The translations under genes and the position numbers were made by a program. A stretch of DNA of 64,000 bases from positions 1,715 through 65,714 of the forward strand of contig JAFSEY010000009.1 in assembly GCA_017435485.1 (NCBI GenBank). Reading direction: 5' to 3'. Below are positions 11,680 through 60,903 of the stretch, one piece after another. Position 1 is the first letter of the stretch, and the number at the start of each line of letters is the position of its first letter. The stretch is from Bacilli bacterium. GTDB taxonomy: Bacteria; Bacillota_I; Bacilli_A; RF39; UBA660. The notes under the pieces were generated by a model. It was not told where the DNA came from, did no database searches, and saw nothing but the letters and a program-made list of their open reading frames with translations.

Positions 11680-11738
11680 AAGCTCTGCTCCTTTTTTTAC
11701 TATGATTATTATACTATAAAAATTTTTTTTGGCAAATA

Positions 11739-12584: not shown

Positions 12585-12597
12585 TTATAACTCCTTT

Positions 12598-14574: not shown

Positions 14575-14603
14575 CTAAATATATTTAAGTTCAAAAAGAA
14601 GGA

Positions 14604-16388: not shown

Positions 16389-16390
16389 TA

Positions 16391-16945
16391 TTACATCACC
16401 GTCCCAAAACTAGTATTAGCACCATCGTTAAAGAAATTATCTAAAATTACTCTTAAATCGTTATTAGAAACTTGAACCGAATTTAATCCAGCATTGGCTA
16501 AATTCATAATTAAATTACGTAATTTCTTTTGAACTATTTCTAATCTCTTTTCTTTAAATAAAATAAAATATTCTGTATCAACAACGCCATATTCTTGACC
16601 AGCAAACATATTTCCTTTGTTAATATCTTGCATAATTAATTTACGAGCAATTGGATTAGGGTTGTTATTATATAATAATTGTAATTGAGACATATAAACA
16701 TGAATATCTACTGGACGATCTGCTACAATTAACCAAAATTCATAATCAATTGTGTTGTAAAAATTACGAAGGGCTGCTAACGCTGAATCTTGAGCTCCCT
16801 TTTCTAAAATAAAGATATTTTTAGGAGCAATTTTTACTCCACTTACATATTGTCCATCATCTAATTGGATCATACCATTTAAAATTTGTTTAATTGGTAA
16901 CCAATCCTCTGTATATTTTTCTCCACTATTTTGTGTCGTCGCCAT
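16391..16945 (-). CDS. T4SS-associated cytoplasmic protein of unknown function (probable start at the internal MATTQNSG)
   Basis: The track ORF 16391..17002 overlaps the upstream gene. The internal Met at 16945 gives only a 20-nt overlap, typical of translational coupling. Confidence 0.35.
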   Translation of the reverse strand: MATTQNSGEKYTEDWLPIKQILNGMIQLDDGQYVSGVKIAPKNIFILEKGAQDSALAALRNFYNTIDYEFWLIVADRPVDIHVYMSQLQLLYNNNPNPIARKLIMQDINKGNMFAGQEYGVVDTEYFILFKEKRLEIVQKKLRNLIMNLANAGLNSVQVSNNDLRVILDNFFNDGANTSFGTVM

Positions 16946-17252
16946 ACCACACACACCAACCTTTCCATTTATAGCTTTTTTGCTTAAAAATAAATGTAAC
17001 AATATTAATGATTAATTGTAATATATTATGATAATGAGGCACTGGCATTACTAAAAAAGCTGATACTAATGCCGGTGCTAAAATCATCATCAAAGTTTTA
17101 AATTCAGTTGAATTAATTACTAACAACATTATTACTGTGGTTAGTACTCCAAAACCAAATATAAACAAATCAACCATTGTAAAATAACCTAATATTAATC
17201 CAGAACGTTTAGCATTTGCTGGAATTAAATAAGTTTGTTCTTCTTGTTCCAT
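16926..17252 (-). CDS. Small two-transmembrane protein, VirB3/ConD/Orf17-like by position and topology
   Basis: It is 108 aa with two hydrophobic helices and lies immediately upstream of the VirB4 gene, as in ICEBs1 and Tn916. Confidence 0.4.
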   Translation of the reverse strand: MEQEEQTYLIPANAKRSGLILGYFTMVDLFIFGFGVLTTVIMLLVINSTEFKTLMMILAPALVSAFLVMPVPHYHNILQLIINIVTFIFKQKSYKWKGWCVWYGDDTK

Positions 17253-17270
17253 ATATTATCTCCCTTTTTA

Positions 17271-19523
17271 TTATTTTTTCTTTTCAGAATCTTGTCTTTC
17301 TCTTTCAAACTTAGTAATAGCTGCTTTTAATTCTGTTTTTCTTAAGTCTGATTCTGTTCCAAATGCTTTGAATTCATCACTATTAACTGTTATAGAAGCT
17401 TTTACTCCATCCAGGGTGAATCCAGCTGCTTGAACTGCAGGACTGGCAATATTCTTTTCAAGTAAATTCTTAAATTCAACGGCACTTTGTCTAATATCTC
17501 CCAAATCTCCTGCGAGACTTTTATTGACTTTGATAAAGCGATCCCATTCATCATCACTAACTAAGGCTTGATTTTGAATTGCATCTTGTAGCAATTTTTG
17601 ATCATTTGCAAATTGTTTTTGTAAGTAGGCGTATTCTTCACTACGTCCTCCAGCTTGAGCTGCCTCCATTTGAGTTTTTGTTGCTCTTAAATCGTTAACA
17701 TCTAGTGTTTTAATGTTACCACTAGTATTAATTTTTTCAATCAACCTATTTAAAGACTGAATTTCAGCATCTGAATCGGATCTACCGCTAGCTTTCATAG
17801 TTTCTACAATAGATTCTAATTCCTTACGTTGAGCAGTCATATCCACAACACATGTTATACCTAAACTTGAACTAGCTTTTGATAACTCTTTTGTAATTAA
17901 TCCTTCAGCTGCAGTACGAGTTCCTTTTTTTGCTGAACCCATTTTTTCTAAGTCTGCTAATTCAGCTTTTGCATCTTCAACACTATTAATTCCAAAATAG
18001 TCACCAACTCTTCTAACTGTATCTTTTGCATGCCCACTAATACTTCCCCAAACAGTTCCACCATGACTAGCCTTATATCCTTTTCTTTCAACAGCTTTTT
18101 CACCAGCTTTTGTTGCTCCCTTTCGGGCGTGTTCTCTCATTCCTTTTACATCATTAGTATCTTTCCCAAAAGATCTAACTCCACCAGACACAAAACCTGC
18201 CGCTCCTCTAAGCAAGCCTTCTCCAAGTCCAGCAGCAATACCACCAACTCGCATCCTTCTTTGCTCTCCTTTAGAATATAAAATTGGAGAATCAGAGTTT
18301 AATTTTTCTTTGACCTTATTTCTATAAGAATTATTAGTGAATCCCCCCACTGCATTTCTAATCCCTGAAGTTAGAGCACCGCCAACCATAGCTCCACCAA
18401 TGAATGCACCACCAGCTGCTAGCTTGTCTTTAATGCCCATACTCATATTTTTACTGTCAATACCAGTTATTTCACTTATTAATTGTGGTGCTTGTTTTGC
18501 AAACATTAAACATCCCATTATTAATAACGCTCTTAATATTCTTGTTGTAAAATATCCTGCTCCCTCATCTATAACCCCCTTATTAAATACAACACAAATA
18601 ACTCTTATTAGATAAACCATTAAGAATAATATTGCAATTCTTAATAAAGCTTCAAAAAAAGTTGTTAAAGTTACTTTTATCCATTTTTTTAACATATCTT
18701 TTTTCCCTGGTATTATATCAGCCATTGCAGGAAGTGGCGCTATAATTTCATAAAATGCTAATTTTACTAATCTTAAAGCTAAAGACAAGCAGTAACTAAT
18801 CATCATATAAATACAAAATCCACCAGCAACTAATGCAAATACCCAATTATAGACTATATATCCATCATTTCTTGTTTCCTCATTAATTATATCGGCATAT
18901 AATTTATAATGATTAAAATTCCCGTCAGCTACAACCATATCATGAATTTCTTGATACTTTCTTCCTCCATAATTAAAGTTGTCAATTTCCTCTTGAATAG
19001 TTTCATTATCTTTGTTTTCTTCTACTACATATGGATAGAAAAATGACTCAAATATAGTTATTGAAATATCAATCCCAGCTTGTTCGATAACCTCAGCAAC
19101 GGTTTGTTGATTTCCTGTTTGAGAAACTAAATATTCATTAGATGAATTTGAATCATTAGTTCCAAGAATGATTTTTCCTATTGTGTTTTTTTCTAATAAA
19201 GAATCTTGAACAACAAATGCAAATTCAAACGCTGTTGGAACAATCGCTATAACAACGATTGCTTTTATAACATCTAAAATTATTTTTCCAGCTCCACTTT
19301 TGTCTTTCGCATCGGGATTTACTATAGTTCTTAACATTGAATATGCTAAGAAAAATAACATTACTACGCCTATTACTGTGTACATTCTGCGGATAATAGG
19401 AGCCAATACATTATCTTCACTACTAAATATATTTAATTTTGCCAAATACAGAAAAATATTATATAACGCTGCTATACCGCTATAAATCCAGCTTACCACT
19501 TCAATCAAAAAATTATTTATCAT
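17271..19523 (-). CDS. VirB6/TrbL-like polytopic membrane protein with a long C-terminal soluble domain (ConG/TcpH/Orf15 analogue)
   Basis: It has six or more transmembrane helices in the N-terminal 370 aa, a Gly-rich segment (AAGGAFIGGAMVGGALTSG), and about 350 aa of hydrophilic, partly coiled sequence. Confidence 0.55.
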   Translation of the reverse strand: MINNFLIEVVSWIYSGIAALYNIFLYLAKLNIFSSEDNVLAPIIRRMYTVIGVVMLFFLAYSMLRTIVNPDAKDKSGAGKIILDVIKAIVVIAIVPTAFEFAFVVQDSLLEKNTIGKIILGTNDSNSSNEYLVSQTGNQQTVAEVIEQAGIDISITIFESFFYPYVVEENKDNETIQEEIDNFNYGGRKYQEIHDMVVADGNFNHYKLYADIINEETRNDGYIVYNWVFALVAGGFCIYMMISYCLSLALRLVKLAFYEIIAPLPAMADIIPGKKDMLKKWIKVTLTTFFEALLRIAILFLMVYLIRVICVVFNKGVIDEGAGYFTTRILRALLIMGCLMFAKQAPQLISEITGIDSKNMSMGIKDKLAAGGAFIGGAMVGGALTSGIRNAVGGFTNNSYRNKVKEKLNSDSPILYSKGEQRRMRVGGIAAGLGEGLLRGAAGFVSGGVRSFGKDTNDVKGMREHARKGATKAGEKAVERKGYKASHGGTVWGSISGHAKDTVRRVGDYFGINSVEDAKAELADLEKMGSAKKGTRTAAEGLITKELSKASSSLGITCVVDMTAQRKELESIVETMKASGRSDSDAEIQSLNRLIEKINTSGNIKTLDVNDLRATKTQMEAAQAGGRSEEYAYLQKQFANDQKLLQDAIQNQALVSDDEWDRFIKVNKSLAGDLGDIRQSAVEFKNLLEKNIASPAVQAAGFTLDGVKASITVNSDEFKAFGTESDLRKTELKAAITKFERERQDSEKKK

Positions 19524-19539
19524 ATTATATTACTCCTTT

Positions 19540-20862
19540 TTAGTTTAATCCGCAGGTGTTATAAGCACCTAACAACGATAATATAAAGTTTATTAGTACC
19601 GGAAGAAAGAATATTACAATTGCTGCAATTAATCTTTTTACTGCTGTTGTTGCCGATTTTTTCAATTGGTCTTTATCTTGATTAATTGTTGCTTTTATAA
19701 AATCCATTGTACTTAAGGCAAACACTAAAATAATTGCACCATACTTCATAATATTAAGTGTTAAGTCTAAATAATAAGCTGGTTCGCAATCAATTCCAGT
19801 TGGACATTCTCTATTTCCTAAAAAACCTTCACAGCCTTCTTCTCCGCCCCAATCTAATTTATGTTTCCCAACACTTTGAATACGCAAGTTAGCATACTCA
19901 CCTAGACCCTCAGTGAGTTCATCTAAATTTTCGGCAATATTACCACTGTATTCCTGTCTTAGTTCATCAGTTAACGAAGCATCGTTTTTTAAAACTTGCT
20001 CACACGATTCATAAGCCAAATCAAATTTTGTGTTAACTACTTCCGCAACTTTATTAAATGATTCCGTATTCAATAAAAAATCTGGAATATCTTCCACTTG
20101 CCAATCGCTACGAATAAAATATGATTGGATTAATTGTTTTTTTATTTGAGTTTCTATTTCTGTAATGTATTCAGTTACTATTCCATTTTCATCTTCCCTT
20201 TTATTTTTCAAATTATTACAAAATGGATTTTCTGCTAAACTTTTATCTGGATAAACTGAAAAAGTTACTGTAAGATACTTATCTAACATTGAGTTAATTA
20301 CTTTTTCTTGTTCTGACATAAAATCAAAGGTTCTTTTTACTTCAGGTTTAAGATACCAATAATATTGACCAAATCTGCTAGAATATCCTTCTTCAATTTT
20401 ATTATAATAAAACATTGGTGCTCCACTACCGTTTGGTATAGCGTTTTTTGTAAAAATATACTCTGGACATTGAAATTTTTCAAACATAACTTTCAAATCA
20501 TCATCGCCATAATACCCATCGCCAGTTTTTAAATTATTAGTAGTAAATCCTGCATCCTTACCTGCAATTCTTTTAATTCTTACGACACCATCTGATCCAA
20601 GATACTCATAAACTAATTCATACTTTTTTTTGTTAACAGAATAAAAAACAGTAGAAGTTATATTATATACAACAGTACTTGCGTATGTTTTTTGAGGATC
20701 AAATGGCTTATCCTCCAATGAAGAAGTAGGAATTCTTAATACGGTATTTTCCCATTGACACACTTTTGTCGCATCTCCATAAGAGGAAGAGAGCTCAGTT
20801 GCTTCAACAAAAATTGGGCAAAAAATTGTTAACAAAAATAATAATTTTAATTTTTTTTTCAT
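19540..20862 (-). CDS. Secreted protein (Sec signal peptide) whose C-terminal ~75 aa is a copy of the two-helix membrane module found in ORFs 20871..21248 and 49235..49666
   Basis: It has a signal peptide MKKKLKLLFLLTIFCPIFVEA and a Cys-containing ectodomain. The C-terminus ...YGAIILVFALSTMDFIKATINQDKDQLKKSATTAVKRLIAAIVIFFLPVLINF aligns to both small paralogs. Confidence 0.5.
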   Translation of the reverse strand: MKKKLKLLFLLTIFCPIFVEATELSSSYGDATKVCQWENTVLRIPTSSLEDKPFDPQKTYASTVVYNITSTVFYSVNKKKYELVYEYLGSDGVVRIKRIAGKDAGFTTNNLKTGDGYYGDDDLKVMFEKFQCPEYIFTKNAIPNGSGAPMFYYNKIEEGYSSRFGQYYWYLKPEVKRTFDFMSEQEKVINSMLDKYLTVTFSVYPDKSLAENPFCNNLKNKREDENGIVTEYITEIETQIKKQLIQSYFIRSDWQVEDIPDFLLNTESFNKVAEVVNTKFDLAYESCEQVLKNDASLTDELRQEYSGNIAENLDELTEGLGEYANLRIQSVGKHKLDWGGEEGCEGFLGNRECPTGIDCEPAYYLDLTLNIMKYGAIILVFALSTMDFIKATINQDKDQLKKSATTAVKRLIAAIVIFFLPVLINFILSLLGAYNTCGLN

Positions 20863-20870
20863 AAACGCAC

Positions 20871-21248
20871 CTACTCTGTAAATATTCCATCTTTATCATT
20901 TATTTTGCATGTAGATGGTTCTTTTAAACAATTCGTTAAGCAATCAAATTTTTTTGTTTTATCAGCACCATCTACTAATGACATCACCGCGGTTATTACA
21001 TAAGGAATAAAGAAAATCACCACTGCTGCTATTGCCTTTTTCACTAAAGAACTAATAGCTATTTTAATTGCTTTGTCGTCATTTGATAAGACTGCTTTTC
21101 CTAATTCAAAAGATCCAAGTCCTATTAAAAGAATTGGAATAACTATTTTTAAAAATATAAATATATATCCAAGTATTTGAAATGTTTTTAATAAACCACT
21201 TTGATCACAAATTGCAAAGTCAGCTAACGTAAAAATTTTTTCCATCAC
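20871..21248 (-). CDS. Small two-transmembrane protein, member of a three-paralog pilin-like family (first gene of the T4SS-like cluster)
   Basis: It is 125 aa with hydrophobic helix 1 (FQILGYIFIFLKIVIPILLIGLGSF), a conserved motif ELGKAVLSNDDKAIKIAISSLVKKAIAAVVIFFIPYV, and a Cys-containing tail. Confidence 0.5.
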   Translation of the reverse strand: MMEKIFTLADFAICDQSGLLKTFQILGYIFIFLKIVIPILLIGLGSFELGKAVLSNDDKAIKIAISSLVKKAIAAVVIFFIPYVITAVMSLVDGADKTKKFDCLTNCLKEPSTCKINDKDGIFTE

Positions 21249-47744: not shown

Positions 47745-47752
47745 AAACCCTC

Positions 47753-49234: not shown

Positions 49235-49666
49235 TTAATTTTCTCCAGTTTTTTCTTCAGTTTTTTCTTCAGTTTTTTCGCTATATGTTGCATCTTTAGC
49301 AGATTCTACAGCGGTTTTACAAGCTCCATCTTTTTTATTAGGATTAGTAATACAAGCTTGACATATTTTATAATCTTTTTCAACATCATCAAATCCTATT
49401 ACAATTCCAAAAATAAAACTTACTAAGAATGGTAGGAAAAATATTACTACTCCAGCAATAGCTCTTTTCACTAAAGAACTTGTAGCACTTTTAATTGCTT
49501 TATCATCATTAGCAACTACTGCCTTTCCTAAATCCATCATACCAAAAATAATTAATAATAGTGGAATTGCTATTTTAAATACATATAAAACATATCCAAC
49601 AAATTGCCAAATTGGTGAAGTTCTTGTACAAAACTGAGTAACTTCTGCAAGAATATTAAACATCAA
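49235..49666 (-). CDS. Small two-transmembrane protein, paralog of 20871..21248, with a C-terminal (EKTE)n repeat; last gene of the Tad-like locus
   Basis: DLGKAVVANDDKAIKSATSSLVKRAIAGVVIFFLPFLV aligns to both the 125-aa protein and the C-terminus of the 440-aa protein. The 3' end contains three 12-nt tandem repeats (cagttttttctt). Confidence 0.5.
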   Translation of the reverse strand: MMFNILAEVTQFCTRTSPIWQFVGYVLYVFKIAIPLLLIIFGMMDLGKAVVANDDKAIKSATSSLVKRAIAGVVIFFLPFLVSFIFGIVIGFDDVEKDYKICQACITNPNKKDGACKTAVESAKDATYSEKTEEKTEEKTGEN

Positions 49667-49723
49667 AATCTCTCCTTCTCTGCATATAATTTTAACTAAA
49701 TTATCTTATTTTGTCAATATATA

Positions 49724-50719
49724 TCACTTAAACAAGCCAAATAAACCACTTTTTCCCCCATTAGGATTCTTTAATTTGGCAAATCCTAGTGCTATTCCAA
49801 ATTCATCCATAACTTTATGATGATCTTTTTTATCATCGATATATGGTATGTTAAAGAAAACTTTACTATTACTTTCGTATTCAAAGTCACTAACATCCTT
49901 ATTACTTAAAATACTTCTATTTAAAACAATCTTTTTATCTTTTAATTTATCAAATATTTTTGGATCTTCTCTAATAAGCCTATTTAATTTTATGATTCCT
50001 GGTTCAATTAAATACACAACATCAGTACAACCAGTTTCGCTGCCATTATCTCCCAAGTCAACCAAAATAGCTTCTAGATCTTGATGCATTGCTACAAATG
50101 CAGCAAATTCCAGTGAGCTAATACTTTTTAAGGATTCATCCGAAAAGAAAGCAAAATCATTCTTATCAAGTTCAACAGCTACTACTTTATAAAATTGTTC
50201 TAAGTGTTTTTTTAACATATACACAAGTGTTGTTGATCCAGCATGAGAAGTAACATTTTTGAATCCAATTACTCTCGTCTTCATTGGACCAAAAACACCA
50301 CCTATACCATTCATATCTGGAACTTGAGATGCTACACCTTCCATATTATGATAACTTGCCACATCTTTATAAGTATTTGGATTATCAATTAAAAATTTAA
50401 TGGCATCTAGATTTCTAGTGAAATTATAGATTCCCATTGAAACTAGCTGTGATAAATACATTGGTGCATTAGCTTCTTCAGAATCATCTAATAAAATAAT
50501 AACTTTATTCATATCAAAACTAACAGATAACTCTTGAATAACCGCTATTTGTTTATAATCTTTTATTGCTGTAATATCTAAAATCATTTTATTATAAAAA
50601 AAATTATTAAATTGATTTGCTAATTCTCCTGGTGTAAATTCTCCATTAATACTTTTTATTACATCAATATCCAATGTTGATAACATGGCTTGGTATTTAT
50701 TTGAAACTATTACATTCAT
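49724..50719 (-). CDS. TadZ/CpaE-like protein (ParA/MinD-fold with a degenerate P-loop) candidate
   Basis: It is 331 aa. The degenerate segment GFKNVTSHAGSTTLVYML stands in the position of the MinD P-loop (Walker A). The N-terminal domain is receiver-like. It lies within the Tad-like locus. Confidence 0.35.
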   Translation of the reverse strand: MNVIVSNKYQAMLSTLDIDVIKSINGEFTPGELANQFNNFFYNKMILDITAIKDYKQIAVIQELSVSFDMNKVIILLDDSEEANAPMYLSQLVSMGIYNFTRNLDAIKFLIDNPNTYKDVASYHNMEGVASQVPDMNGIGGVFGPMKTRVIGFKNVTSHAGSTTLVYMLKKHLEQFYKVVAVELDKNDFAFFSDESLKSISSLEFAAFVAMHQDLEAILVDLGDNGSETGCTDVVYLIEPGIIKLNRLIREDPKIFDKLKDKKIVLNRSILSNKDVSDFEYESNSKVFFNIPYIDDKKDHHKVMDEFGIALGFAKLKNPNGGKSGLFGLFK

Positions 50720-50731
50720 TATTATCCCTCT

Positions 50732-51217
50732 TTAATCAAAAAAATCCTCTCTATCAATCATATCAGTAGTTTTACCTTTAACTCTAAAAGTAGCTATATT
50801 TCCAATAATTGGAAGATTAAACCGATAAAATAAGGTTACTTCATAATTAACTCTTGTTAAAGTATCTTTGAAACCTTCTTTTCGTTCTTGTTCTATACAA
50901 AATAGATATCTATCACCCTCATTAGCTACATTCGGATTTGCAGCAAGATTATCTACAGCTAACATAGGATTTTCTACAGGATTTTCATCATCAAAACATG
51001 TTCCTGTGGTTGTATAATTAGAATTTCTTAAAAAATTATTTATTAACGTAGATGAAGTATCATTATATCCCCGATATTTTTCTAAAATAGAAATAACTTC
51101 ATTTTTCATTGAAAAAACTTTTGAGTAAGATATAGTTAAGGTTAAGAAAGCTACAAATAATAATATGAATCCAATCATTAATTGCAACGTCCACGTTGAT
51201 CCATAAACATCTTTCAT
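50732..51217 (-). CDS. TadE/TadF-like pseudopilin
   Basis: It is 161 aa with the short leader MKDVYG followed by a single N-terminal transmembrane helix. Confidence 0.45.
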   Translation of the reverse strand: MKDVYGSTWTLQLMIGFILLFVAFLTLTISYSKVFSMKNEVISILEKYRGYNDTSSTLINNFLRNSNYTTTGTCFDDENPVENPMLAVDNLAANPNVANEGDRYLFCIEQERKEGFKDTLTRVNYEVTLFYRFNLPIIGNIATFRVKGKTTDMIDREDFFD

Positions 51218-51227
51218 ATCTTACCTC

Positions 51228-51701
51228 CTATATCATCGGTTTAGTATCACCTTTTATACTCAAATTAAATATAGTTCTAACTAATGGTATTTCTAGATGG
51301 TAAAATGTTATAACTTGGTAATAATACCTTGGTGCTCCTAGAGCACTAGCTGTTTCCACTCTTCTTACACAAAAAGCTGAATTTGTATCTGATAAATTAC
51401 CTTGTTCATCAAATCCTGTCCATCCAGGTCCATATTCTTCTTCAAATCTAGTACAATCACCATTGATTCTATATCCTACTTCGGCTAGTTCAGCGGTAAC
51501 TTCATCGATAAAGTTTATATCATCCGCTAAATCTGCAACACTGCTCATTCCAGACCCATTTCGTTCTAATATTCTTATTAAACTATTTTTGACATTAAAC
51601 GCTTTAGTCTGATTTATTGATAAACACATATATCCAGCAAATAAAATAACAAAAAAGATTACTATCATGAATAACCAATTACCACCTATGGCTTCTTTCA
51701 T
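51228..51701 (-). CDS. TadE/TadF-like pseudopilin (paralog)
   Basis: It is 157 aa with the leader MKEAIGG followed by a transmembrane helix. It shares the ...TFYHLEIPL / ...TLFYRFNLPI C-terminal motif with the neighbouring gene. Confidence 0.45.
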   Translation of the reverse strand: MKEAIGGNWLFMIVIFFVILFAGYMCLSINQTKAFNVKNSLIRILERNGSGMSSVADLADDINFIDEVTAELAEVGYRINGDCTRFEEEYGPGWTGFDEQGNLSDTNSAFCVRRVETASALGAPRYYYQVITFYHLEIPLVRTIFNLSIKGDTKPMI

Positions 51702-51712
51702 TTGCGTATCAC

Positions 51713-51940
51713 CTAACCTTTATTTACACAATCAAAATGTTCAGATGGATTGCTTTCCATATAGCAATCACATATATCATCAGTAATATCACAAGTACAA
51801 ATTGCATCACTACAATTTGCTGAATTATGTAATCCAGATTTTATTACTGGCCATATTACCATAGAAAAAAGAGCCACTAGACCAGCTACGGCTAAAACTA
51901 TTATAACAGTCAAATTAAGTTCACTAATGGCTTGTTTCAT
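51713..51940 (-). CDS. Flp/type IV pilin-like small protein with a Cys-rich C-terminus
   Basis: It is 75 aa. The prepilin-like N-terminus MKQAIS-ELNLTVIIVLAVAGLVALF is followed by eight Cys residues in the last 40 aa. Confidence 0.45.
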   Translation of the reverse strand: MKQAISELNLTVIIVLAVAGLVALFSMVIWPVIKSGLHNSANCSDAICTCDITDDICDCYMESNPSEHFDCVNKG

Positions 51941-51949
51941 TTGTTAATC

Positions 51950-52225
51950 CTATTCCTCAGTACAATTACGTTGATAAGTTTTTCCTTGATATTCAACTGT
52001 ACAAGTAAAATCTATACATTGAACATCAGCTTCAGCATCATTAGCTCCACCTATTATTTGGTCAGAAGTATAGTTACCACTTGAATTAACATTACTACAC
52101 GCAGAGCTTAAAATTAAATTAGCTTGAATATTAGGCCATACAAACATAGTAAATAATAAACCTACTGCAGCTATTGCTACAACAGTAATAACAGTCATGT
52201 TTAATTCTCCAGTTGCTTCTTTCAT
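51950..52225 (-). CDS. Flp/type IV pilin-like small protein with a Cys-rich C-terminus (paralog)
   Basis: It is 91 aa with the N-terminus MKEATG-ELNMTVITVVAIAAVGLLF and six Cys residues. Confidence 0.45.
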   Translation of the reverse strand: MKEATGELNMTVITVVAIAAVGLLFTMFVWPNIQANLILSSACSNVNSSGNYTSDQIIGGANDAEADVQCIDFTCTVEYQGKTYQRNCTEE

Positions 52226-52305
52226 TTATAAATCATCTCCTATTTTTATTTATATTTTTATTATACATATTTTTTCTGTTAATATCAATATTTTTAAAAT
52301 TACTT

Positions 52306-53094
52306 TTACATATTCATCATTTGTAAAACTGCTAACACAAGTAAAATCATAACCCCTACTCCAGTAGTTACTAACATTTGCATTGTTTTACTTTCCATTT
52401 TTTCTAATCGTTCTTTATATCTAGTCTCTCTGGCTTTTTGTTGAAGATTGGAAATGGTTTTAGAGAAAGTCATCAATTGTTCTTGTTTTCTTTCTTGTCT
52501 ACCTAAACTCAAACGATATAACAAACGCATCATACGCATTGAGTCTCTAACTGGATAGTTTCTAGCAAAATCCATATAAGGGTCAATTGTATCGTTACCA
52601 GCATTAATTTCATTAATCATTTGTTGAAGTCCATCTTTAAATATTGATGGAGCATCATTCATTGATTTACCTATTGCTACAGGTACTGTATAGTGTTGAA
52701 TTAATATCTCTAAACTTTTTAAATAATATGGTAACATTGAGTCGATTTTATGCAAATGTGCTTTATGATAATTTTTGATAGATAAATAATCCCATTTAAA
52801 AATTGCAAATGCTCCAATTAAAGCTATAATAACAGAAATTGCTGTTATATTTTTTAACATAAATAACATGATCAAGATAAAGATTAAAAAAGCATTTTTA
52901 ATTCTTTTAGAAAATAATATATCAGGACTTACTCCATCTCCATATTTTGCTCTAACAAAGAAATCCCAATCGTCTTCTTTTAATCTTCTAAATAACATTT
53001 CATTGTCAGCGAATAGTTTATTTAAATCAAGTCTTCCCGTATAACTCATTATAAAGAAAACTATTACTGCTATTATTATTATTTCTATTTGCAT
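52306..53094 (-). CDS. TadC-like (T2SS F-domain) inner-membrane platform protein
   Basis: It is 262 aa with two N-terminal and one or two C-terminal transmembrane helices and a central cytoplasmic domain. It is positioned after the tadB-like gene. Confidence 0.5.
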   Translation of the reverse strand: MQIEIIIIAVIVFFIMSYTGRLDLNKLFADNEMLFRRLKEDDWDFFVRAKYGDGVSPDILFSKRIKNAFLIFILIMLFMLKNITAISVIIALIGAFAIFKWDYLSIKNYHKAHLHKIDSMLPYYLKSLEILIQHYTVPVAIGKSMNDAPSIFKDGLQQMINEINAGNDTIDPYMDFARNYPVRDSMRMMRLLYRLSLGRQERKQEQLMTFSKTISNLQQKARETRYKERLEKMESKTMQMLVTTGVGVMILLVLAVLQMMNM

Positions 53095-53987
53095 TATTCA
53101 ACCCCCACATCTTCATTATAATATTTAACACCTTTTATTAAGAATATAGCGTTAATTATTATAATTGCATGAAGTATTAATTTTACGTACCAATCTTTTA
53201 ATAAGTCAACGTAGTTTTCACTTCCTAATAAAAATTGCATAACTAAAACTAGTAAAAATAACACAAAACCAAATGTTAAAAATTTACGATAAAAGGTTTT
53301 ACGATCCATCTGATCACGATAAACCCCTTCTACTAATGTATCGATGTCCATTGCCATATTTTCTAAAGATTCTCCTGAATCTCTCGCACCTTCTTTGGTA
53401 ATTTGCAAAAATAATTGATGCATATTTTTTACCATATAAAATGGATATTTATTATTAAAATATTCAATTGATTCATCGATAGTACCATTTTTATAAGACA
53501 TATCAATCATGATTTTTAAGTCTTTTAGAACTGGATCTTCAATTATCCCAGAGTCTCTAACACCTTCCAGTGATTTAACAAAACTTTGTGTTGTATTAAA
53601 TTCCATTATTACGTTAGTAGTATAAACCTGAATTTGCTCAAATATATATTCACTATATAATCGTTGACTTCTTAAATATGCTAAATAAGGAATAAAAGCA
53701 ATAGCTACTCCAGCATAGACCAAAGCCCATATAATACTATAGAAGTAAAAATATGCAATTCCTCCAGCTAATCCCCCAAATAAAACTACTTGTAATAAAT
53801 ATTGTTTTTTAGTATATTGAAATCCTAATTCTTTGGTTTTTTGATTAACTTCTTTAAAAGTATATGGAGCATATTTTTCATATACACCAACAGCTTTTTG
53901 AGCAGCCTCTTTGTATGCTTGTTGTCCATTACCAGTTCGATAAAGTATAACAAAAATAGCGATTGCTAGTAATAAAATAAGCTCCAT
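53094..53987 (-). CDS. TadB-like (T2SS F-domain) inner-membrane platform protein
   Basis: It is 297 aa and lies immediately downstream of the CpaF/TadA ATPase gene. Its transmembrane pattern resembles that of the GspF family. Confidence 0.5.
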   Translation of the reverse strand: MELILLLAIAIFVILYRTGNGQQAYKEAAQKAVGVYEKYAPYTFKEVNQKTKELGFQYTKKQYLLQVVLFGGLAGGIAYFYFYSIIWALVYAGVAIAFIPYLAYLRSQRLYSEYIFEQIQVYTTNVIMEFNTTQSFVKSLEGVRDSGIIEDPVLKDLKIMIDMSYKNGTIDESIEYFNNKYPFYMVKNMHQLFLQITKEGARDSGESLENMAMDIDTLVEGVYRDQMDRKTFYRKFLTFGFVLFLLVLVMQFLLGSENYVDLLKDWYVKLILHAIIIINAIFLIKGVKYYNEDVGVE

Positions 53988-54002
53988 TTATATACCTTCT
54001 TT

Positions 54003-55109
54003 CTATAATGACTCTATTGCTAAATTATCTTGCTCAATTTGTGATTCACTTGTTGTAATATGAAGAGGATTTTCTTCTAAAATAACTCCTTGTGCTCCCA
54101 TATATCTTCTCAAATATTCAGTTGGATTATTAAAAGAGATTGTTCCATCTAAACCTTTTTTAAACAATATATTTGAGCCGGCTTCATTGTTATCATCAAC
54201 AAAAAATTCACAAACTTCAACAATCTCACGTTGAAATCTTCCTAATTCTTTACTTAAATATCCTTTCACATGCACACCAATTTGAACATATCGATGAATT
54301 GATTTTAAAAATTGATCAATATCTTGATTACTTTCTAATAAACTGTACATACGCATTGGAATATTTTTAGCACTATCCGAGTGGATAGTTGATATAATAT
54401 TATGTCCTGATGAAATTGAGTTTCTTACGGCCATTACGGCTTCCCCACTACGAACTTCTGATAATAAAATCCAACGAGGGTTTTGACGCATACAAGTAAC
54501 TAATACATCAGAATATGATGCAATATTATTTGTTTTCATTGCGACAATATCACGCATAGGAAATATTTTATCTAAGTGAAGTTCTAATGTATCTTCAATT
54601 GTTATTATTTTTTCATTTTCTTTTGTGTTACTAGCTAGATATTTTACTAATTCTGTTTTACCAGAACCAGTTTCTCCACTAACAATAATGTTACAATGTC
54701 CTAAAACACATTGTATCAAGAAATTATGTAATTCCTCAGTGACATATTTTTCATCTAATAATTTTTCTTTATTCAATCTAATTTTGGCAGGAGTTTTACG
54801 AATAACCAAGGCTGTTCCATTCGTTGCAATCGAATCATGAACGAAATTCATACGAAGTTCAGCACTTTCAGCATCTAAAAAAGGATGCGCCATATTAAAC
54901 GTTTTACCCATAACATTAGCACATTGAAACGCTAATTTATCAATTAGGGGATCATTTATTTCTGGTCTTTCAACTTTATAAACACCTTTGTCTAAAGACT
55001 TTAACCAAATTTGCCCCCCATTGGTATATGAAACGTCTGTTATATTGTCATCCTCTAAAAACTCTTTTAATGGACCAAAATCGATTTGAGAAAAAATTGC
55101 ATCTCTCAT
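54003..55109 (-). CDS. CpaF/TadA-family secretion ATPase (VirB11-like)
   Basis: It has a Walker A motif (VSGETGSGKTEL), an Asp box (IITIEDTLELHL), a Walker B motif (RWILLSEVRSGEA) and a His box (ISTIHSDSA). Confidence 0.8.
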   Translation of the reverse strand: MRDAIFSQIDFGPLKEFLEDDNITDVSYTNGGQIWLKSLDKGVYKVERPEINDPLIDKLAFQCANVMGKTFNMAHPFLDAESAELRMNFVHDSIATNGTALVIRKTPAKIRLNKEKLLDEKYVTEELHNFLIQCVLGHCNIIVSGETGSGKTELVKYLASNTKENEKIITIEDTLELHLDKIFPMRDIVAMKTNNIASYSDVLVTCMRQNPRWILLSEVRSGEAVMAVRNSISSGHNIISTIHSDSAKNIPMRMYSLLESNQDIDQFLKSIHRYVQIGVHVKGYLSKELGRFQREIVEVCEFFVDDNNEAGSNILFKKGLDGTISFNNPTEYLRRYMGAQGVILEENPLHITTSESQIEQDNLAIESL

Positions 55110-55124
55110 GGTCTTACCTCTTTT

Positions 55125-55922
55125 TTAATTTCCTACTGCTGCAGATCCTGCTTCAATCATATTTTTTAAATATAAATTTACGATATTTTCTTTTTTATCC
55201 GTAACTTCTGAATATGGAATTTCTTTTGGAACTGGAATAAGTTTAAAATCATATGCACTTACTAAAGTTGCTTTTGTTAATAATTCAAAATTTTCTTTAG
55301 ATACAACAGTAATAATATATTTTGGTGATGTACCTTCTTCACCTGCAGTAGTACTCCATTTAGTATCTACTACATCAATAACTTCTAAATTTTCCATAAA
55401 TGGTGCAAAGATTACTTTTCCAGCTTCGTCTTTTCCCTGTAGATACAAATCAATTGCATTACCTGGTGCAATCGAATTACCATGTGTTGTATCTAAGTTA
55501 ACATCTAGCATAAATAATTTATAATCTTTTTTTAAATTCTTATATAATTTTTGATCAGCTTTTTCTGATTTAGCAATTAAATCATCTTTGCATAGAAGTG
55601 ATCCTTCTGTTAAGCTATGATCAAAGTTTACAAAGAAGAATTCGTTATTTCCATCTTTTATTTGACTTATATTCGTAACCAAATTTTTATAAGTTTCTGT
55701 TAATTTTTTATTAATAGTAACTTTCCCTAACATATCTTCAGTTAATTGAGTATTGCTTTCAACGTTTTGTTTAACATAGTACACTTGAACTGTTGCAACA
55801 CTTTGATTTACACGATAATTATATCCAACATATAATACTATGATTCCAGCTAAAACTCCTAAGATAGTCACGGTGTTTTTATTGGCTATAAATCCTTTTA
55901 AATTATTTAATAAATTCCCCAT
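55125..55922 (-). CDS. CpaB/RcpC-like pilus assembly protein (SAF domain)
   Basis: It has an N-terminal transmembrane segment (TVTILGVLAGIIVLYV) followed by a SAF-like region, VATVQVYYVKQNVESNTQLTEDMLGKV. Confidence 0.55.
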   Translation of the reverse strand: MGNLLNNLKGFIANKNTVTILGVLAGIIVLYVGYNYRVNQSVATVQVYYVKQNVESNTQLTEDMLGKVTINKKLTETYKNLVTNISQIKDGNNEFFFVNFDHSLTEGSLLCKDDLIAKSEKADQKLYKNLKKDYKLFMLDVNLDTTHGNSIAPGNAIDLYLQGKDEAGKVIFAPFMENLEVIDVVDTKWSTTAGEEGTSPKYIITVVSKENFELLTKATLVSAYDFKLIPVPKEIPYSEVTDKKENIVNLYLKNMIEAGSAAVGN

Positions 55923-55934
55923 AATTATTCCTTT

Positions 55935-56351
55935 CTAACTTTCTTCAAATTCTCCATGATTTAAAACAGCATCAATTTTTTCAACAATATCAAAACTTTC
56001 AGCATCTCCCATTACATTAAAGGAATTTGATTGACTTGAAACTTTTACACTAACTTTAGGAGGAGCTTCATATATATCATAAAATTCAATAGTATAAGTA
56101 CTACTTAATGATACAGAATCAGCAAATCTTCTTATGAAAGATTCTATAAACTTCTCTTTGTTAATTCTTATTTCTTTCCAATCACGATAATAAGTATAAT
56201 CAATAGCATCTAACATAGAAGCTTGAGCTATTTCCTTTACTAGGTAATAATCTTGACTTTTTGTTGTTGTAATATTGTTTACTATCATCATAACAACAAC
56301 AATAAATATACCTAATAAAACTAACCAATAACCCCAGTAGGTATCTTTCAT
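55935..56351 (-). CDS. TadE-like pseudopilin (third copy)
   Basis: It is 138 aa with the leader MKDTYWGYW followed by a transmembrane helix. Confidence 0.4.
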   Translation of the reverse strand: MKDTYWGYWLVLLGIFIVVVMMIVNNITTTKSQDYYLVKEIAQASMLDAIDYTYYRDWKEIRINKEKFIESFIRRFADSVSLSSTYTIEFYDIYEAPPKVSVKVSSQSNSFNVMGDAESFDIVEKIDAVLNHGEFEES

Positions 56352-56366
56352 TTTTATACACTCCTT

Positions 56367-59348
56367 TTATCTAAATGCTGGACCTTCTCCAGATTTTTTA
56401 CCTTTCGAAGTCGTCTTGCGTTCTTCTGGAGATTTTGCATCTAATCTATTATCAACTTGGTCGCTATCTAATTGTTCTTCTAATTCATCAAGATAAGTAC
56501 TTGTACAAGTTACGTAATCTTCTCCATTATTAACACAATTTAATGTGCTATTTAAATATCCACCATTATTTTGAACTTCATTAGAGCTATTATAATTACG
56601 GATTATATTGATATCTCTAGGAGATAAAGTAATTCTATATTCTAAATGGTCATCAGTGTAAGCTTCTTCGCCTAAACCTTCAATTTCCGCTAAAGCAGCA
56701 GATCCTTTTTCTGTTCGCCAGTTTGCAGCTAATCCACTTTTATTTGGAGTTCCTACTGCTACAACTGCATTAGCATCATTATTTTTTTCTTCTTGCTCTG
56801 TTTGTTTATTATTTATATTATAAGCAATTGCATTATTATGCATATCATTTAGGTATTTAATATTAGCTGCTAAGAATGGATTTTTTAAAGATATAGGTTC
56901 AAAATCTACTGCTAATCCATTTTGGATATCAAATATACATCCTACTTTACGACATTCCCAAATACATTCGTCATCACATTCAGGGTCACCACCACAAATT
57001 CCTTCCGGGTCACATCCCCAAGGGCAATCATCACAACCATTAACTTTATAAGGACATTCTAAATCTATTGTATCAACGCCCAATTCAAATGCAACAGCTT
57101 CTAATCTACCCGCTTGACAATTACCGCCACTTAAATAATGTCCATAATTAGAAATAATAAATTGATAAGCATATTCACCTTGGGTTGTCTCATAACTTAC
57201 CGGCCATCCTTCAGTATAAGTAGCCCCTGGAATAGCTTCGCATTGATCCTTTGTTAAGGTGTATGAAGACTCTCCAGTATTATAATTATTACAAATTCCA
57301 ACTGAATTTAACTTGTAAGTATTTGTAATAGTAGCTGATCCGCTAGTATAATTTGCATCAGTAAACTGATCAGTTTCTTTACCAATTCCTAAGTCAATTG
57401 TGGCATTCGTTTTAGCTTTAGTTGTATCATCATATTTTCCGGTTGTAGATTTATAAGAATTTGTTGTATCTAGAGTATCTACTTTTACCTCTTCTAACAC
57501 TAATTCTTTTTCAGTTAAGTTTAGCCATTCGCCATCAGTATAAGTGAAATATACATTTGGGTGACAAGTTCCTCCTACACCTACTGCTGTTTTAAATTTT
57601 TCATTTTCTAAACTCCATCCATTACAGTCATCAAATAAAGCAACTTGTTCATTTGCATATGAAATATAGTTATTTTTTGCTGTTTCAATAGTTCCAGCAT
57701 CAGCTTTTTCAGTCATAGGACTACATGAAGTAACTTCTAACCATCCAGAGGTTTGAGGAATGTTCATAACTATTTCCACCTCTAAGTTGCTTCCTTTTCT
57801 TCTTGCTGTATAAGTTTTACTTGTAGTTTTTTCGTATATAATTTCTTCGCCAGTTTCTTCGTCTACTTCTGTTTTACATTCAGTTGTTGTTTCGGCTAAA
57901 ATATCGGCATAATCTTGAGCTCCAACTTTTCCAGCTTTTCCGTTTATAATGTTTTCCATTAATTTATCAATGTAATTTTCACCATAACAATAAATTGTAG
58001 TTTTATCTTTAGCTTCACTTGGATCAAAAGTAAAATAAGAACCCGATGTTATTAAAAATTCATTTCCGTTTTTATCTTGAGCACTTAATGGACCTGGTGA
58101 TAAAAACTCATAATCTTCTGTACAATAAATATTACAATATTCATTGGTTAATACTGATTCACCTAAAACCAATTCTGTTGATTCTAAAGGAGCCCCAGTT
58201 ATGTCTTCTTCCCCTATAATACAAGCATCTATCGATTCAATTGTCGAATTATATTCATCGCCTTCTGTAACAGCCACTACAACTTCACCAAAACTATTAC
58301 ATAAAGCATCACCGACACCAGGTATACCTCCAGAAGTATTGTCTATATAGCCAGGAATTTCCGTACAATCATCTTCTGGATCAGTTGGATCACCACAGCT
58401 AGCTTGTTGATTAGTGGCAATAGGTAACTTAGTTTGACCAGAACCATCACTTTCTTGATTACATCCTATATAATTTTGAACATCATAACCTAAATCTGGA
58501 CATGAATAACTAACTACTTCTGAACATTGTCCAGCTTCAGCATTATAAATTAAATCAGCACTAAATTTATTATTACCCCCACTACAATCCACTTTATATT
58601 CATTTGTTAACACCCCAGAATTAAAGGATGAGTTTTCTAAAGTCAATGGCCCAGAAACACTTATTTCTGATCCTTCTGGTACATTTGAACAAGATATCGT
58701 TACTTTTCCTTTTGATGATTTTGCAGAACAACTAGGAGCATTATATCCAACGGCTCCTCCTTCTGCAGAATTTGATGTTTTTAAAGCTTCTGATGCTAAA
58801 TTTATAGCATCACTTGTTACTTTATTATCTTCTCCTTCAGTATATAAACTAAAGTCATTAGCACAGTTTGTACCACCATAACTTTTTGCATCATTTAATT
58901 TACTATCAATTTGAGTACCTGCTTTATCCGCTGCTAATTTAGCCGCCCTTACATAACCACACTTTGTGTTAATTACAGATTCACTAGAACTATTTTTTTG
59001 GAAATTATTGGTTCCTGTTGCGGTTGCATAAATTCTCATTGCTAAACCCTTAGTATCTTCATCAGCATCACTACTCATAATTGTAGCATATCCTGCCCCA
59101 TGTGCTCCATCTACTGTTGATTCATTACAAGTAGCATTATTAGTTGCTGTAACTCGACCAGGGTCAATACAATATGCAGAATATCCACCCTCCATAGTTA
59201 TTTTTGTAGAACTTCCAGCATGAAAATTATGGTCACCTTTAAAATAGTTTGGTGTCTCAGTATACCCAGTTACTTTTCTTCCAGCATCTACCACAGTTAT
59301 AGATGCAAAACATAGTAAAATTAATAAACTTAATAATTTCTTTTTCAT
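56367..59348 (-). CDS. Large secreted Cys-rich protein (993 aa), candidate pilus-associated adhesin
   Basis: A Sec signal peptide (MKKKLLSLLILLCFASITVVDA) is present, the protein contains more than 40 Cys residues, and no LPXTG motif is found. It lies in the Tad-like operon. Confidence 0.45.
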   Translation of the reverse strand: MKKKLLSLLILLCFASITVVDAGRKVTGYTETPNYFKGDHNFHAGSSTKITMEGGYSAYCIDPGRVTATNNATCNESTVDGAHGAGYATIMSSDADEDTKGLAMRIYATATGTNNFQKNSSSESVINTKCGYVRAAKLAADKAGTQIDSKLNDAKSYGGTNCANDFSLYTEGEDNKVTSDAINLASEALKTSNSAEGGAVGYNAPSCSAKSSKGKVTISCSNVPEGSEISVSGPLTLENSSFNSGVLTNEYKVDCSGGNNKFSADLIYNAEAGQCSEVVSYSCPDLGYDVQNYIGCNQESDGSGQTKLPIATNQQASCGDPTDPEDDCTEIPGYIDNTSGGIPGVGDALCNSFGEVVVAVTEGDEYNSTIESIDACIIGEEDITGAPLESTELVLGESVLTNEYCNIYCTEDYEFLSPGPLSAQDKNGNEFLITSGSYFTFDPSEAKDKTTIYCYGENYIDKLMENIINGKAGKVGAQDYADILAETTTECKTEVDEETGEEIIYEKTTSKTYTARRKGSNLEVEIVMNIPQTSGWLEVTSCSPMTEKADAGTIETAKNNYISYANEQVALFDDCNGWSLENEKFKTAVGVGGTCHPNVYFTYTDGEWLNLTEKELVLEEVKVDTLDTTNSYKSTTGKYDDTTKAKTNATIDLGIGKETDQFTDANYTSGSATITNTYKLNSVGICNNYNTGESSYTLTKDQCEAIPGATYTEGWPVSYETTQGEYAYQFIISNYGHYLSGGNCQAGRLEAVAFELGVDTIDLECPYKVNGCDDCPWGCDPEGICGGDPECDDECIWECRKVGCIFDIQNGLAVDFEPISLKNPFLAANIKYLNDMHNNAIAYNINNKQTEQEEKNNDANAVVAVGTPNKSGLAANWRTEKGSAALAEIEGLGEEAYTDDHLEYRITLSPRDINIIRNYNSSNEVQNNGGYLNSTLNCVNNGEDYVTCTSTYLDELEEQLDSDQVDNRLDAKSPEERKTTSKGKKSGEGPAFR

Positions 59349-60103
59349 AAAACACTTTCTCTCTTTCGTCTTATATTTACCACTACAATGGCAACCCCTG
59401 CAATAACGATAATAGAGCTTCCGGCAATAAATGCAACTTTATGTTCTTTAATAAAATCCCCTATAATTTCGTACCACTTTTTATTCTCTTCTTTTTCCTT
59501 TTCTTCTTTTTTACCTACTTCTAAATACTCATTTATTTTTTCGAATTGTTCACTATATTTCATTTTAACGGTAATATATTTTTGACAAGGCAGATAATCA
59601 GTTATTCCTTCACATATTATTTTATCATGAAACTCATTATACATAGGAGTGATCAAATAGTTAGTAAAATACTTTTCATTCCGACAATCAGTTTCATCTG
59701 ATGAATAAACCTCATAAGTGAAATTAACTACATCATCTAAATTATACCAATTTAAAGTATACATTCCATCGGTGGTATCTTTATATCTAATGAACTTAAC
59801 TTCTTCGTTGTAATCATTCATTACTTTAACATAAATATCTTTAGTTATATTAGTAAATATTATTTTAAAGTAATCTCGATATAATACAACTTCTCCAACA
59901 GTTTCATTAGTAGGAGCATATAAAGACGGATCTACTTTTTCGCTTGCTTCTTCATAGACTGCCTTTACACTACTAGCAACCTTACCAAGCTCCACTTGTT
60001 GTTCATAAGAACAAGCAGATGCAGCATTTGCAACATTTAAATTTATTAACGCAAGTATTCCAGCTAGCATTACAACCACTTTTTTCTTCATAGTATACAC
60101 CAA
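59345..60103 (-). CDS. Type I membrane protein (signal peptide plus C-terminal transmembrane anchor); first gene of the Tad-like operon
   Basis: It has a signal peptide ...NLNVANAAS, an ectodomain containing Cys residues, a C-terminal transmembrane segment (VAFIAGSSIIVIAGVAIVVV) and the tail RRKRESVL. Its stop overlaps the next gene's start by 4 nt. Confidence 0.4.
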   Translation of the reverse strand: MVYTMKKKVVVMLAGILALINLNVANAASACSYEQQVELGKVASSVKAVYEEASEKVDPSLYAPTNETVGEVVLYRDYFKIIFTNITKDIYVKVMNDYNEEVKFIRYKDTTDGMYTLNWYNLDDVVNFTYEVYSSDETDCRNEKYFTNYLITPMYNEFHDKIICEGITDYLPCQKYITVKMKYSEQFEKINEYLEVGKKEEKEKEENKKWYEIIGDFIKEHKVAFIAGSSIIVIAGVAIVVVNIRRKRESVL

Positions 60104-60902: not shown

Positions 60903-60903
60903 T

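Follow-up and report, generated by a model that had tools for sequence, protein, structure and literature searches.

Thirteen co-directional genes (g01–g13) on the minus strand of a 64,000-nucleotide stretch of DNA from a Bacilli bacterium of the RF39 lineage (assembly GCA_017435485.1, contig JAFSEY010000009.1, positions 1,715 to 65,714; the whole stretch is referred to as the window) probably encode a divergent type IV filament machine of the Tad kind, suited to a monoderm cell and here termed the "DUF5411 type", which most likely makes contact for transfer mediated by a type IV secretion system (T4SS). This role is the most likely one because the operon ends in a VirB2-like gene, is coupled to T4SS genes and has collinear counterparts on conjugative plasmids. 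The motor, the candidate pilins and the links to T4SSs are described first, followed by the secreted surface proteins, the comparison with known filament systems and the other explanations of the locus.

The operon extends from position 60103 to position 49235 (Table 1), and the open reading frame (ORF) calls bear out the original prediction, made from the sequence alone, of a 13-gene minus-strand operon with these bounds and gene lengths. The window has a base composition of ~27% GC, and a Shine-Dalgarno-like sequence lies 6–10 nt ahead of the ATG in every one of the 13 genes; the short N-termini beginning with MK are therefore real translation starts. For g01, which gives 252 aa when read from a TTG and 248 aa when read from the ATG at 60091, the latter is probably the start, and the gene is called with 248 aa in the related record L081. 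A near-consensus sigma-70-like site (TTGATA-17-TATAAT, 52260–52288, minus strand) is found in the 80-bp gap upstream of g08 and a second promoter-like site (TTGACA-17-TAAAAT, 49689–49717) upstream of g13, and both are candidate internal promoters; in the promoter and terminator scans of this AT-rich DNA, matches were not enriched over shuffled sequences.

Table 1. Genes of the operon and the T4SS cluster of the window.
Feature	Position	Strand	Length (aa)	Description
g01	59345..60103	-	252	secreted protein with C-terminal membrane anchor; first gene of the operon
g02	56367..59348	-	993	secreted Cys-rich protein, 36 Cys, signal peptide
g03	55935..56351	-	138	DUF5411 protein, N-terminal transmembrane (TM) helix; candidate minor pilin-like component
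g04	55125..55922	-	265	CpaB/RcpC-like protein, N-terminal TM helix
g05	54003..55109	-	368	secretion ATPase of the CpaF/VirB11 clade; motor
g06	53094..53987	-	297	polytopic, 5 predicted TM helices; TadB-like platform subunit (candidate)
g07	52306..53094	-	262	polytopic, 4 predicted TM helices; TadC-like second platform subunit (candidate)
g08	51950..52225	-	91	putative pilin A; starts MKEATGELNMTVI, TM helix, 4-Cys head
g09	51713..51940	-	75	putative pilin B; starts MKQAISELNLTVI, 6-Cys head
g10	51228..51701	-	157	MKEAIGG start and TM helix; candidate minor pilin
g11	50732..51217	-	161	MKDVYGS start and TM helix; candidate minor pilin
g12	49724..50719	-	331	cytoplasmic two-domain protein, Pfam orphan
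g13	49235..49666	-	143	two-TM VirB2/TrbC-like protein of T4SS_pilin type; last gene of the operon
T4SS cluster	9400..21248	-		Gram-positive-type T4SS, assigned by Pfam; headed by a g13 paralogue (20871–21248)

When a one-genome-per-species collection was scanned with the g05 ATPase, at least 539 stretches were found to encode a close relative, and all locus comparisons refer to the best 80 of these. They come without exception from metagenome-assembled genomes of uncultured gut bacteria labelled "Bacilli bacterium", "Tenericutes" or Candidatus Onthocola, probably members of the GTDB order RF39, with goat, rabbit, chicken, human and others as host animals. By exact sequence match, g12 of the window was likewise found on gut-metagenome scaffolds with identical gene calls, while the same kind of query with g05 returned nothing. 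The order g01–g13 is preserved in essentially all 80 loci wherever the contig is long enough, and this recurrence, far beyond chance, establishes the locus as real. The core of the machine is strongly constrained, whereas its surface parts are fast-evolving: g05 is 75–97% identical over the 80 loci (median 81%), g06 and g07 have median identities of 66–70% (g06 70%) and g12 one of 59%, compared to 27–38% for the surface parts (g02 27%; g01, g04 and g10 32% each). No relatives were found in the viral contigs searched, and the correlation of identities used for distinguishing vertical inheritance from transfer was weak and uninformative (rho 0.33).

The motor is the component with the clearest affiliation. 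g05 passes the Pfam threshold for T2SSE (4.7e-29), and among solved structures CpaF (1e-19) ranks before VirB11 (7e-15), followed by FlaI and archaeal GspE2, whereas the scores of PilT, PilB and GspE are much lower. Among the NCBIfam models, all of which score far below their cut-offs, VirB11 (115 bits), conjugal TadA and TrbB rank above FlaI and ComGA (81 bits against a cut-off of 300). Taken together, the two rankings place g05 in the CpaF/VirB11 clade, in agreement with its prediction as CpaF/TadA, and g05 clusters with neither ComGA nor PilB. The CpaB gene with its SAF domain that had been predicted next to the motor is likewise detected, albeit weakly (TIGR03177 pilus_cpaB 6e-8, at 32 bits against a cut-off of 71; Pfam RcpC 1.2e-4 and SAF 5e-3), and g04 aligns with a "SAF domain-containing protein" from a related locus on a Priestia koreensis plasmid (hhalign 99.5%).

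The same Priestia locus provides the best available evidence on g06 and g07, each of which has a soluble domain of ~130 residues between predicted TM helices. Neither protein matches Pfam, T2SSF included, or PDB sequences, among which the g06 family profile also finds nothing, and the AlphaFold2 model of g06 is poor (pLDDT 54). By profile comparison, g06 is linked to the Priestia protein annotated as type II secretion system (T2SS) F family (hhalign 93.4%, E 2.5e-7), which itself matches Pfam T2SSF just below the cut-off (3.4e-5), while g07 is linked to the 279-aa neighbour of that protein (hhalign 96.6%) and to the gene-39 family of the conjugative plasmid pLS20 (hhalign 95.1%, E 3e-8). These links suggest a platform of the TadB/TadC type. 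The original naming of the two proteins as TadB and TadC is compatible with their polytopic topology and their connection to T2SSF through the Priestia profiles, but it has no direct Pfam or NCBIfam support.

For g12, no match was obtained in Pfam, NCBIfam or PDB sequences, the last searched with the family profile as well. Its AlphaFold2 model (pLDDT 77, pTM 0.72) comprises an N-terminal alpha/beta domain and a nucleoside triphosphatase (NTPase) domain, the latter matching HypB, UreG, ParA and MinD in Foldseek, and the invariant P-loop TSHAGSTT is missing both lysines. A profile search of all libraries returned 562 clusters for the g12 family; ten longer multi-stretch members, taken from the best 150 of these clusters, contain no Pfam domain, so that they form no bridge to TadZ/CpaE. 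By position and modelled fold only, g12 may fill a TadZ/CpaE-like organiser role. Of the predicted TadZ-like protein with a degenerate P-loop, the lysine-less P-loop and the ParA/MinD/HypB-class fold remain, but not a direct family assignment in Pfam or NCBIfam.

The two putative pilins, g08 and g09, are homologous across their N-terminal 47 residues (hhalign 99.8%). The start MKEATGELN is invariant in the g08 family (30 of 30) and near-invariant in the g09 family (52 members), while the C-terminal heads of both families diverge to 30–50% identity; in the g09 family they end in C-x-[FY]-[KR]-G. The Cys residues of the heads are even in number and positionally conserved, with a mode of four in the g08 family (26/30) and of six in the g09 family (47/52), as would be expected for disulfides in an extracellular pilin head. 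The window's own pilins agree with these modes, and the 6 and 8 Cys counted originally have to be corrected to 4 and 6. The observation that the pilins continue with ELN(M/L)TVI, so that a Glu directly follows the putative cleavage Gly (+1) and none stands at +5, was accurate. Neither pilin matches Flp_Fap, even at E<=10.

Three further proteins have pilin-like N-termini. These had been considered TadE-like, which was not sustained: g03 is a DUF5411 protein (2.9e-56, above the Pfam threshold), while g10 and g11 are full-length paralogues of each other (hhalign 100%, E 2e-42) and match nothing in Pfam even at E<=10, TadE included. g03 shares only its N-terminal 30 residues with the other pilin-like proteins and is related to the gene-36 family of pLS20 (hhalign 95.7%, E 9e-9); g10 has weak local similarity (24%) to the pLS20 gene-40/DUF4320 family, and g11 aligns with the gene-40 family over 40 columns (hhalign 49%). 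Altogether, five proteins from three families have a short charged leader that ends in Gly or Ser and precedes a hydrophobic helix, and their common start MK[ED]xx(x)[GS] resembles a short signal peptide of class III. The family N-termini are MK/R-E-x-x-G/S in g10 and g11 and MK-x-x-[YF]-W-G-Y-W in g03, where MK-x-x-Y-W-G forms the leader. A common leader MK(E/D/Q)xx(G/S), as ascribed to all five proteins, does not fit g03, which begins with MKDTYWG and has Trp at position 6 and Gly at position 7.

The connection to conjugation begins with the last gene of the operon. g13, which had been taken for another paralog of the pilins, is unrelated to them (hhalign ~1%); it has the two predicted TM helices of the VirB2 topology and matches Pfam T4SS_pilin (4.9e-4) and T4SS_CagC (0.034) weakly, both below threshold. 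It is present in 47 loci and often duplicated, and arrays of 2–4 g13-like paralogues are found downstream of the operon (e.g., L064:14149–17342, L052:15483–18312, and L074:15151–17445), some of them fused to N-terminal extensions of 100–350 residues. In the window, a further g13 paralogue heads a T4SS cluster flanked by housekeeping genes, in which it is followed by a 440-aa secreted protein, a VirB6-like protein of 750 aa, a TcpE/VirB3-like protein, a 203-aa protein, a VirB4-like ATPase, proteins of 658 and 281 aa and a VirD4 coupling protein (9400–11679; 2e-52). Neither relaxase nor integrase domains were detected near the T4SS among the ORFs scanned in the window, several of which have no Pfam match. 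Of the 29 evaluable loci, nine have T4SS genes directly after g13 on the same strand; the VirB4 encoded there is 72–78% identical to that of the window in eight of them and 61% identical in L060, whose sequence covers only the beginning of the gene. Given this conservation, the T4SS has the appearance of a conserved system of the chromosome and not of a recent mobile element, and it is the probable partner system of the operon.

The closest relatives outside the gut lineages point in the same direction. In a tblastn comparison of g05 with 72,556 plasmids, the best matches were found on Priestia koreensis, Peribacillus, pLS20-family, pXO2-type and Listeria plasmids (29–35% identity, 128–191 bits); proteobacterial CpaF, VirB11 and TrbB reached 59–103 bits, and two unclassified ATPases of the T2SS/type IV pilus (T4P)/T4SS family from Vibrio and Klebsiella plasmids 105–114 bits. 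The Priestia locus encodes, in order, a 172-aa polytopic protein, an SLH protein, a 993-aa Ig-like protein, a DUF5411 protein and a SAF protein, followed by a ParA-like protein, CpaF/VirB11, the T2SS F family protein, the 279-aa protein and a DUF4320 protein. Five plasmids (pLS20, pXO2, Listeria pLM1686, and those of Virgibacillus and Peribacillus) share a common module, which starts with a thioester or isopeptide adhesin (not listed for pXO2, whose gene table is incomplete), a DUF5411-like protein of ~125 aa, the CpaF/VirB11 ATPase and two polytopic proteins and ends with a DUF4320-like protein of ~120 aa with an N-terminal TM helix, a TM protein of ~48 aa and a TrbC/VirB2-family protein. For pLS20 and the Virgibacillus plasmid, whose retrieved sequences reach far enough, VirD4 and VirB6-like genes come after the module. 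In pLS20, p36 matches DUF5411 (1.4e-5), the gene-38 family is linked to the Priestia T2SSF-annotated protein (hhalign 49%), and gene 45 matches T4SS_pilin above threshold (1.3e-7), its counterparts being annotated TrbC/VirB2 in pXO2 and the Virgibacillus and Peribacillus plasmids.

The gene order of this module (genes 34–45 in pLS20) is collinear with the window operon. Differences are that CpaB is inserted between DUF5411 and the ATPase in the window operon, that the plasmid modules have neither CpaB nor a g12-type protein, although the Priestia locus has a SAF and a ParA-like gene, and that neither the MKEATGELN start nor Cys-rich heads occur in the small proteins of the modules. In addition, the modules reside in plasmids with a relaxase, whereas the window locus is chromosomal and no relaxase is present among the ORFs scanned. 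The plasmid module looks like a hidden Tad-type pilus module; among the papers searched, none connects pLS20 with T2SSF and none mentions DUF4320.

The operon opens with two secreted proteins. As predicted originally, g01 is an anchored protein, with a signal-like N-terminus and a TM helix at residues 223–241 according to topology prediction, and homologues are found in 64 of the 80 loci. g02 is equally as described, a Cys-rich protein with a signal peptide; it matches neither Pfam nor NCBIfam, and every related locus has one large Cys-rich ORF at its position (930–1500 aa, 21–61 Cys). g02 is a candidate adhesin or pilus-associated surface protein, and in the conjugative-plasmid modules the same slot is held by thioester or isopeptide adhesins. 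Within the g02 family, Cys60 is invariant in the motif Y-x-A-Y-C-x-D-P, which resembles that of Tie thioester domains (VYCIDP in the Tie protein of pLS20), and one of 37 orthologues matches TED_2 (4.7e-4); a thioester domain received only 5% in hhalign, and its Gln partner is not conserved. The family furthermore has a Cys cluster at 765–804 with spacing of the C-x-x-C type, and a Gly-Pro near the very end of the protein is invariant (consensus ...VIGGPSWK). This Gly-Pro and the C-x-[FY]-[KR]-G endings of the g09 family may serve as signals for sorting or attachment.

The operon is directly followed downstream (46533–49127, minus strand) by genes for a NifS-like cysteine desulfurase, for a thioredoxin and for a protein of 403 aa, in which a secreted CPHC thioredoxin-like domain is fused to a polytopic membrane domain. 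They may form an extracytoplasmic thiol-disulfide system, which would be of relevance to the many secreted proteins of the operon with even Cys numbers; only the two closest loci (L001 and L002) share this synteny. On the other side, divergent from g01 (60231–61677, plus strand), lie genes for a CAAX/CPBP intramembrane protease and a membrane-anchored metallophosphoesterase, which adjoin the operon in 19 and 41 of 52 evaluable loci, respectively. A CAAX protease is also found near the module of Listeria pLM1686.

With the Tad/Flp (type IVc) pili of Aggregatibacter and Caulobacter, the operon shares a single short CpaF-type ATPase, a CpaB-like protein, very short pilins (precursors of 75–91 aa), several proteins with pilin-like N-termini and a peptidase that is possibly encoded elsewhere; a platform split into two genes and a protein of ParA/MinD-class fold with an atypical P-loop would be further common features. 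In contrast to Tad/Flp, the Pfam matches to Flp_Fap, TadE and T2SSF and the G/xxxxEY motif are absent, a Glu directly follows the putative cleavage Gly, and the pilin heads are disulfide-rich; the operon additionally encodes a DUF5411 protein, a giant secreted protein rich in Cys and, in its last gene, a VirB2-like protein, while secretin and TadD are lacking, as expected in a monoderm. The original prediction of a Tad/Flp-like pilus locus hence stands for a Tad-type monoderm filament machine, but a non-canonical one. For the gut Clostridia Roseburia, Ruminococcus and Eubacterium, operons with DUF5411, CpaF and PilC-like proteins have been predicted computationally (Miller et al., 2022; PMC9523054), and TANB77, an uncultured order from the gut, has been reported to possess a Tad-like pilus (PMC11680825). 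These systems also belong to gut Firmicutes and have CpaF, a PilC/T2SSF-like protein, DUF5411 and a large surface protein, with most other genes unannotatable and components recognisable only by structure or context. They are, however, from Clostridia, have no reported T4SS link or VirB2-like gene, and are likened to the window operon by shared domain content only. The kind of system is therefore known, whereas this variant and its T4SS link are not. With the ComG system of Bacilli, the operon has in common that both are monoderm type IV filament machines with short leader peptides ending in Gly. In contrast to ComG, g05 scores ComGA below VirB11/TadA and PilB/GspE below CpaF, the platform is split into two genes, while ComGB is a single two-domain protein, and the G-F-T-L-x-E motif of ComG pilins is absent; ComG in turn has no CpaB, DUF5411 protein or VirB2-like gene.

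From these similarities we infer a working mechanism, in which the ATPase g05, as a hexamer, would drive the membrane platform of g06 and g07, with the CpaB-like g04 and the lysine-less NTPase-fold g12 helping to organise the machine. The short pilins g08 and g09, each composed of an invariant, hydrophobic helix at the N-terminus and a small head with 4 or 6 Cys in disulfide bonds, would be pulled out of the membrane and polymerised, after their class III-like leader has been cut by a peptidase encoded elsewhere in the genome. g03, g10 and g11, by virtue of their pilin-like N-termini, would probably prime or cap the fibre, and g02 would likely be its adhesive cargo or partner together with the membrane-anchored g01. 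The fibre would then make the cell-to-cell or cell-to-surface contact that serves T4SS-mediated transfer.

Several points weigh against a filament machine that serves a T4SS. Among the 13 genes, only g05 and g03 pass curated family thresholds, and the assignments to T2SSF, TadZ and minor pilins rest on single bridging sequences, a fold model and N-terminal architecture. The pilin N-terminus MKEATG-ELNMTV has no Flp G/xxxxEY motif and no Glu at +5, so that processing of g08 and g09, and with it their identity as pilins, is putative. Profile comparison detects no paralogy between g06 and g07, and the direct comparison of g06 with p38 of pLS20 is not significant (2%). A filament has been observed in no relative, and according to the pLS20 literature such systems are without a pilus (PMC8557374, PMC11730352). 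The T4SS of the window is 28 kb away from the operon, and the two are non-adjacent in 20 of the 29 evaluable loci. Finally, a search for G-x-G-D-type motifs together with phmmer found no A24-type peptidase in the 64-kb window or in the flanks of the 80 loci (up to 10 kb on each side), which for the window confirms the original statement that the locus has no TadV/CpaA-type prepilin peptidase gene.

The missing peptidase gene is unremarkable, because models of Tad systems treat TadV as a "loner", whose gene may lie apart from the others, and different systems share peptidases (PMC6668835); pilin maturation may also depend on something else than an A24 peptidase from the locus. The CAAX/CPBP protease beside g01 would be another candidate for cutting the pilins but was dismissed as a general solution, given that it adjoins the operon in only 19 of 52 loci. 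On the Priestia koreensis plasmid, the polytopic 172-aa protein that heads the DUF5411-type locus (L085:1461–1979) has an Asp18 and a G-D74-T-K motif, and its sole Pfam match is Peptidase_A24 (E 0.94, over the full model), which makes it a candidate divergent prepilin peptidase for DUF5411-type systems. No counterpart of this protein was found near the window locus.

The distance between the operon and the T4SS in most loci would fit an operon that encodes a free-standing Tad/Flp adhesion pilus, with which a gut commensal attaches to mucus, host cells or particles and to which the VirB2-like gene and the T4SS neighbourhood are incidental. This explanation, which we consider rather unlikely, agrees with the Tad-resembling core (ATPase, split platform, CpaB, NTPase-fold organiser, and short pilins), with Tad-like pili in uncultured gut Clostridia (PMC11680825) and with fast-evolving surface parts, as host or phage pressure on an adhesin would produce them. 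However, no protein of the operon matches the Flp, TadE or T2SSF families, g13 is conserved as the last operon gene in 47 loci, the nearest relatives of the ATPase, the DUF5411 protein and the second platform protein lie inside conjugation operons, and T4SS genes are directly next to the operon on the same strand in about a third of the evaluable species. These points speak against a free-standing pilus. It is possible, if only as a tentative proposal, that the operon and the T4SS form one composite machine, in which a retractile or adhesive pilus of the Tad type brings cells together for a Gram-positive-type T4SS.

Conversely, the operon could build no filament at all, and the ATPase, the two polytopic and the small single-TM proteins would be inner-membrane accessory subunits of the Gram-positive T4SS channel, with the pilin-like N-termini as ordinary membrane anchors. 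In pLS20, gene 37 has been assigned as VirB11 and genes 36–47 as unknown T4SS-associated proteins, without recognition of pilus components (PMC8557374); the best NCBIfam score of g05 is likewise that of VirB11, though below the cut-off, no peptidase was found in the window and the flanks, and the pilins have no canonical motif. Such an arrangement is nevertheless improbable, as classical VirB11 ATPases come without a T2SSF-like platform or CpaB, both of which are linked to the operon by profile comparison. Moreover, the pilin N-terminus is invariant while the rest diverges, which is typical of a polymerising helix core and not of a plain anchor, and five proteins of three unrelated families have in common a short charged leader with Gly or Ser at its end. 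We regard as very unlikely that the filament is a DNA-uptake pilus, ComG-like in function, that supplies a genome-reduced, auxotrophic gut bacterium with DNA or nucleotides, perhaps together with a relaxase-less T4SS as in the ComB system of Helicobacter. The order-wide conservation in a reduced-genome lineage (for the RF39 background, see PMC12306168), the T4SS with no relaxase or integrase beside it among the window ORFs scanned and the title of a study cited within PMC11680825, which implicates Tad pili in DNA uptake in other bacteria, would fit this idea, but ComGA, PilB and GspE rank well below CpaF/VirB11, the platform is split, and the locus contains neither a G-F-T-L-x-E motif nor ComEA and ComEC, while adhesion is suggested by the large secreted protein rich in Cys and by the plasmid homologues that carry adhesins.

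Apart from the operon, the window encodes a 147-aa protein with 19 Cys (62571–63014, minus strand) that matches the spore-coat protein CotZ (Pfam 2.2e-14) and is shared only by the two closest loci; a CotZ-like protein is unexpected if the organism belongs to a non-sporulating lineage with reduced genomes.

With their disulfide-rich heads and invariant MKEATGELN start, the putative mini-pilins broaden the spectrum of type IV pilin designs known so far. If the composite machine is real, it would be the monoderm counterpart of a conjugative pilus, yet chromosomal, clade-wide and apparently relaxase-less, and may allow genome-reduced cells to exchange DNA or other macromolecules; the same hidden pilus module would then be present in pLS20, pXO2 and the Listeria plasmids, which are now described as pilus-less. 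How mating pairs are formed in Gram-positive conjugation is an acknowledged open question, which a Tad-type module on these plasmids would make testable in tractable Bacillus. In the large clade of uncultured low-GC gut Bacilli, the operon ranks among the most conserved surface machineries, and with a g05 that is about 80% identical across hundreds of species, this machinery is likely central to how these bacteria attach to partners or hosts.

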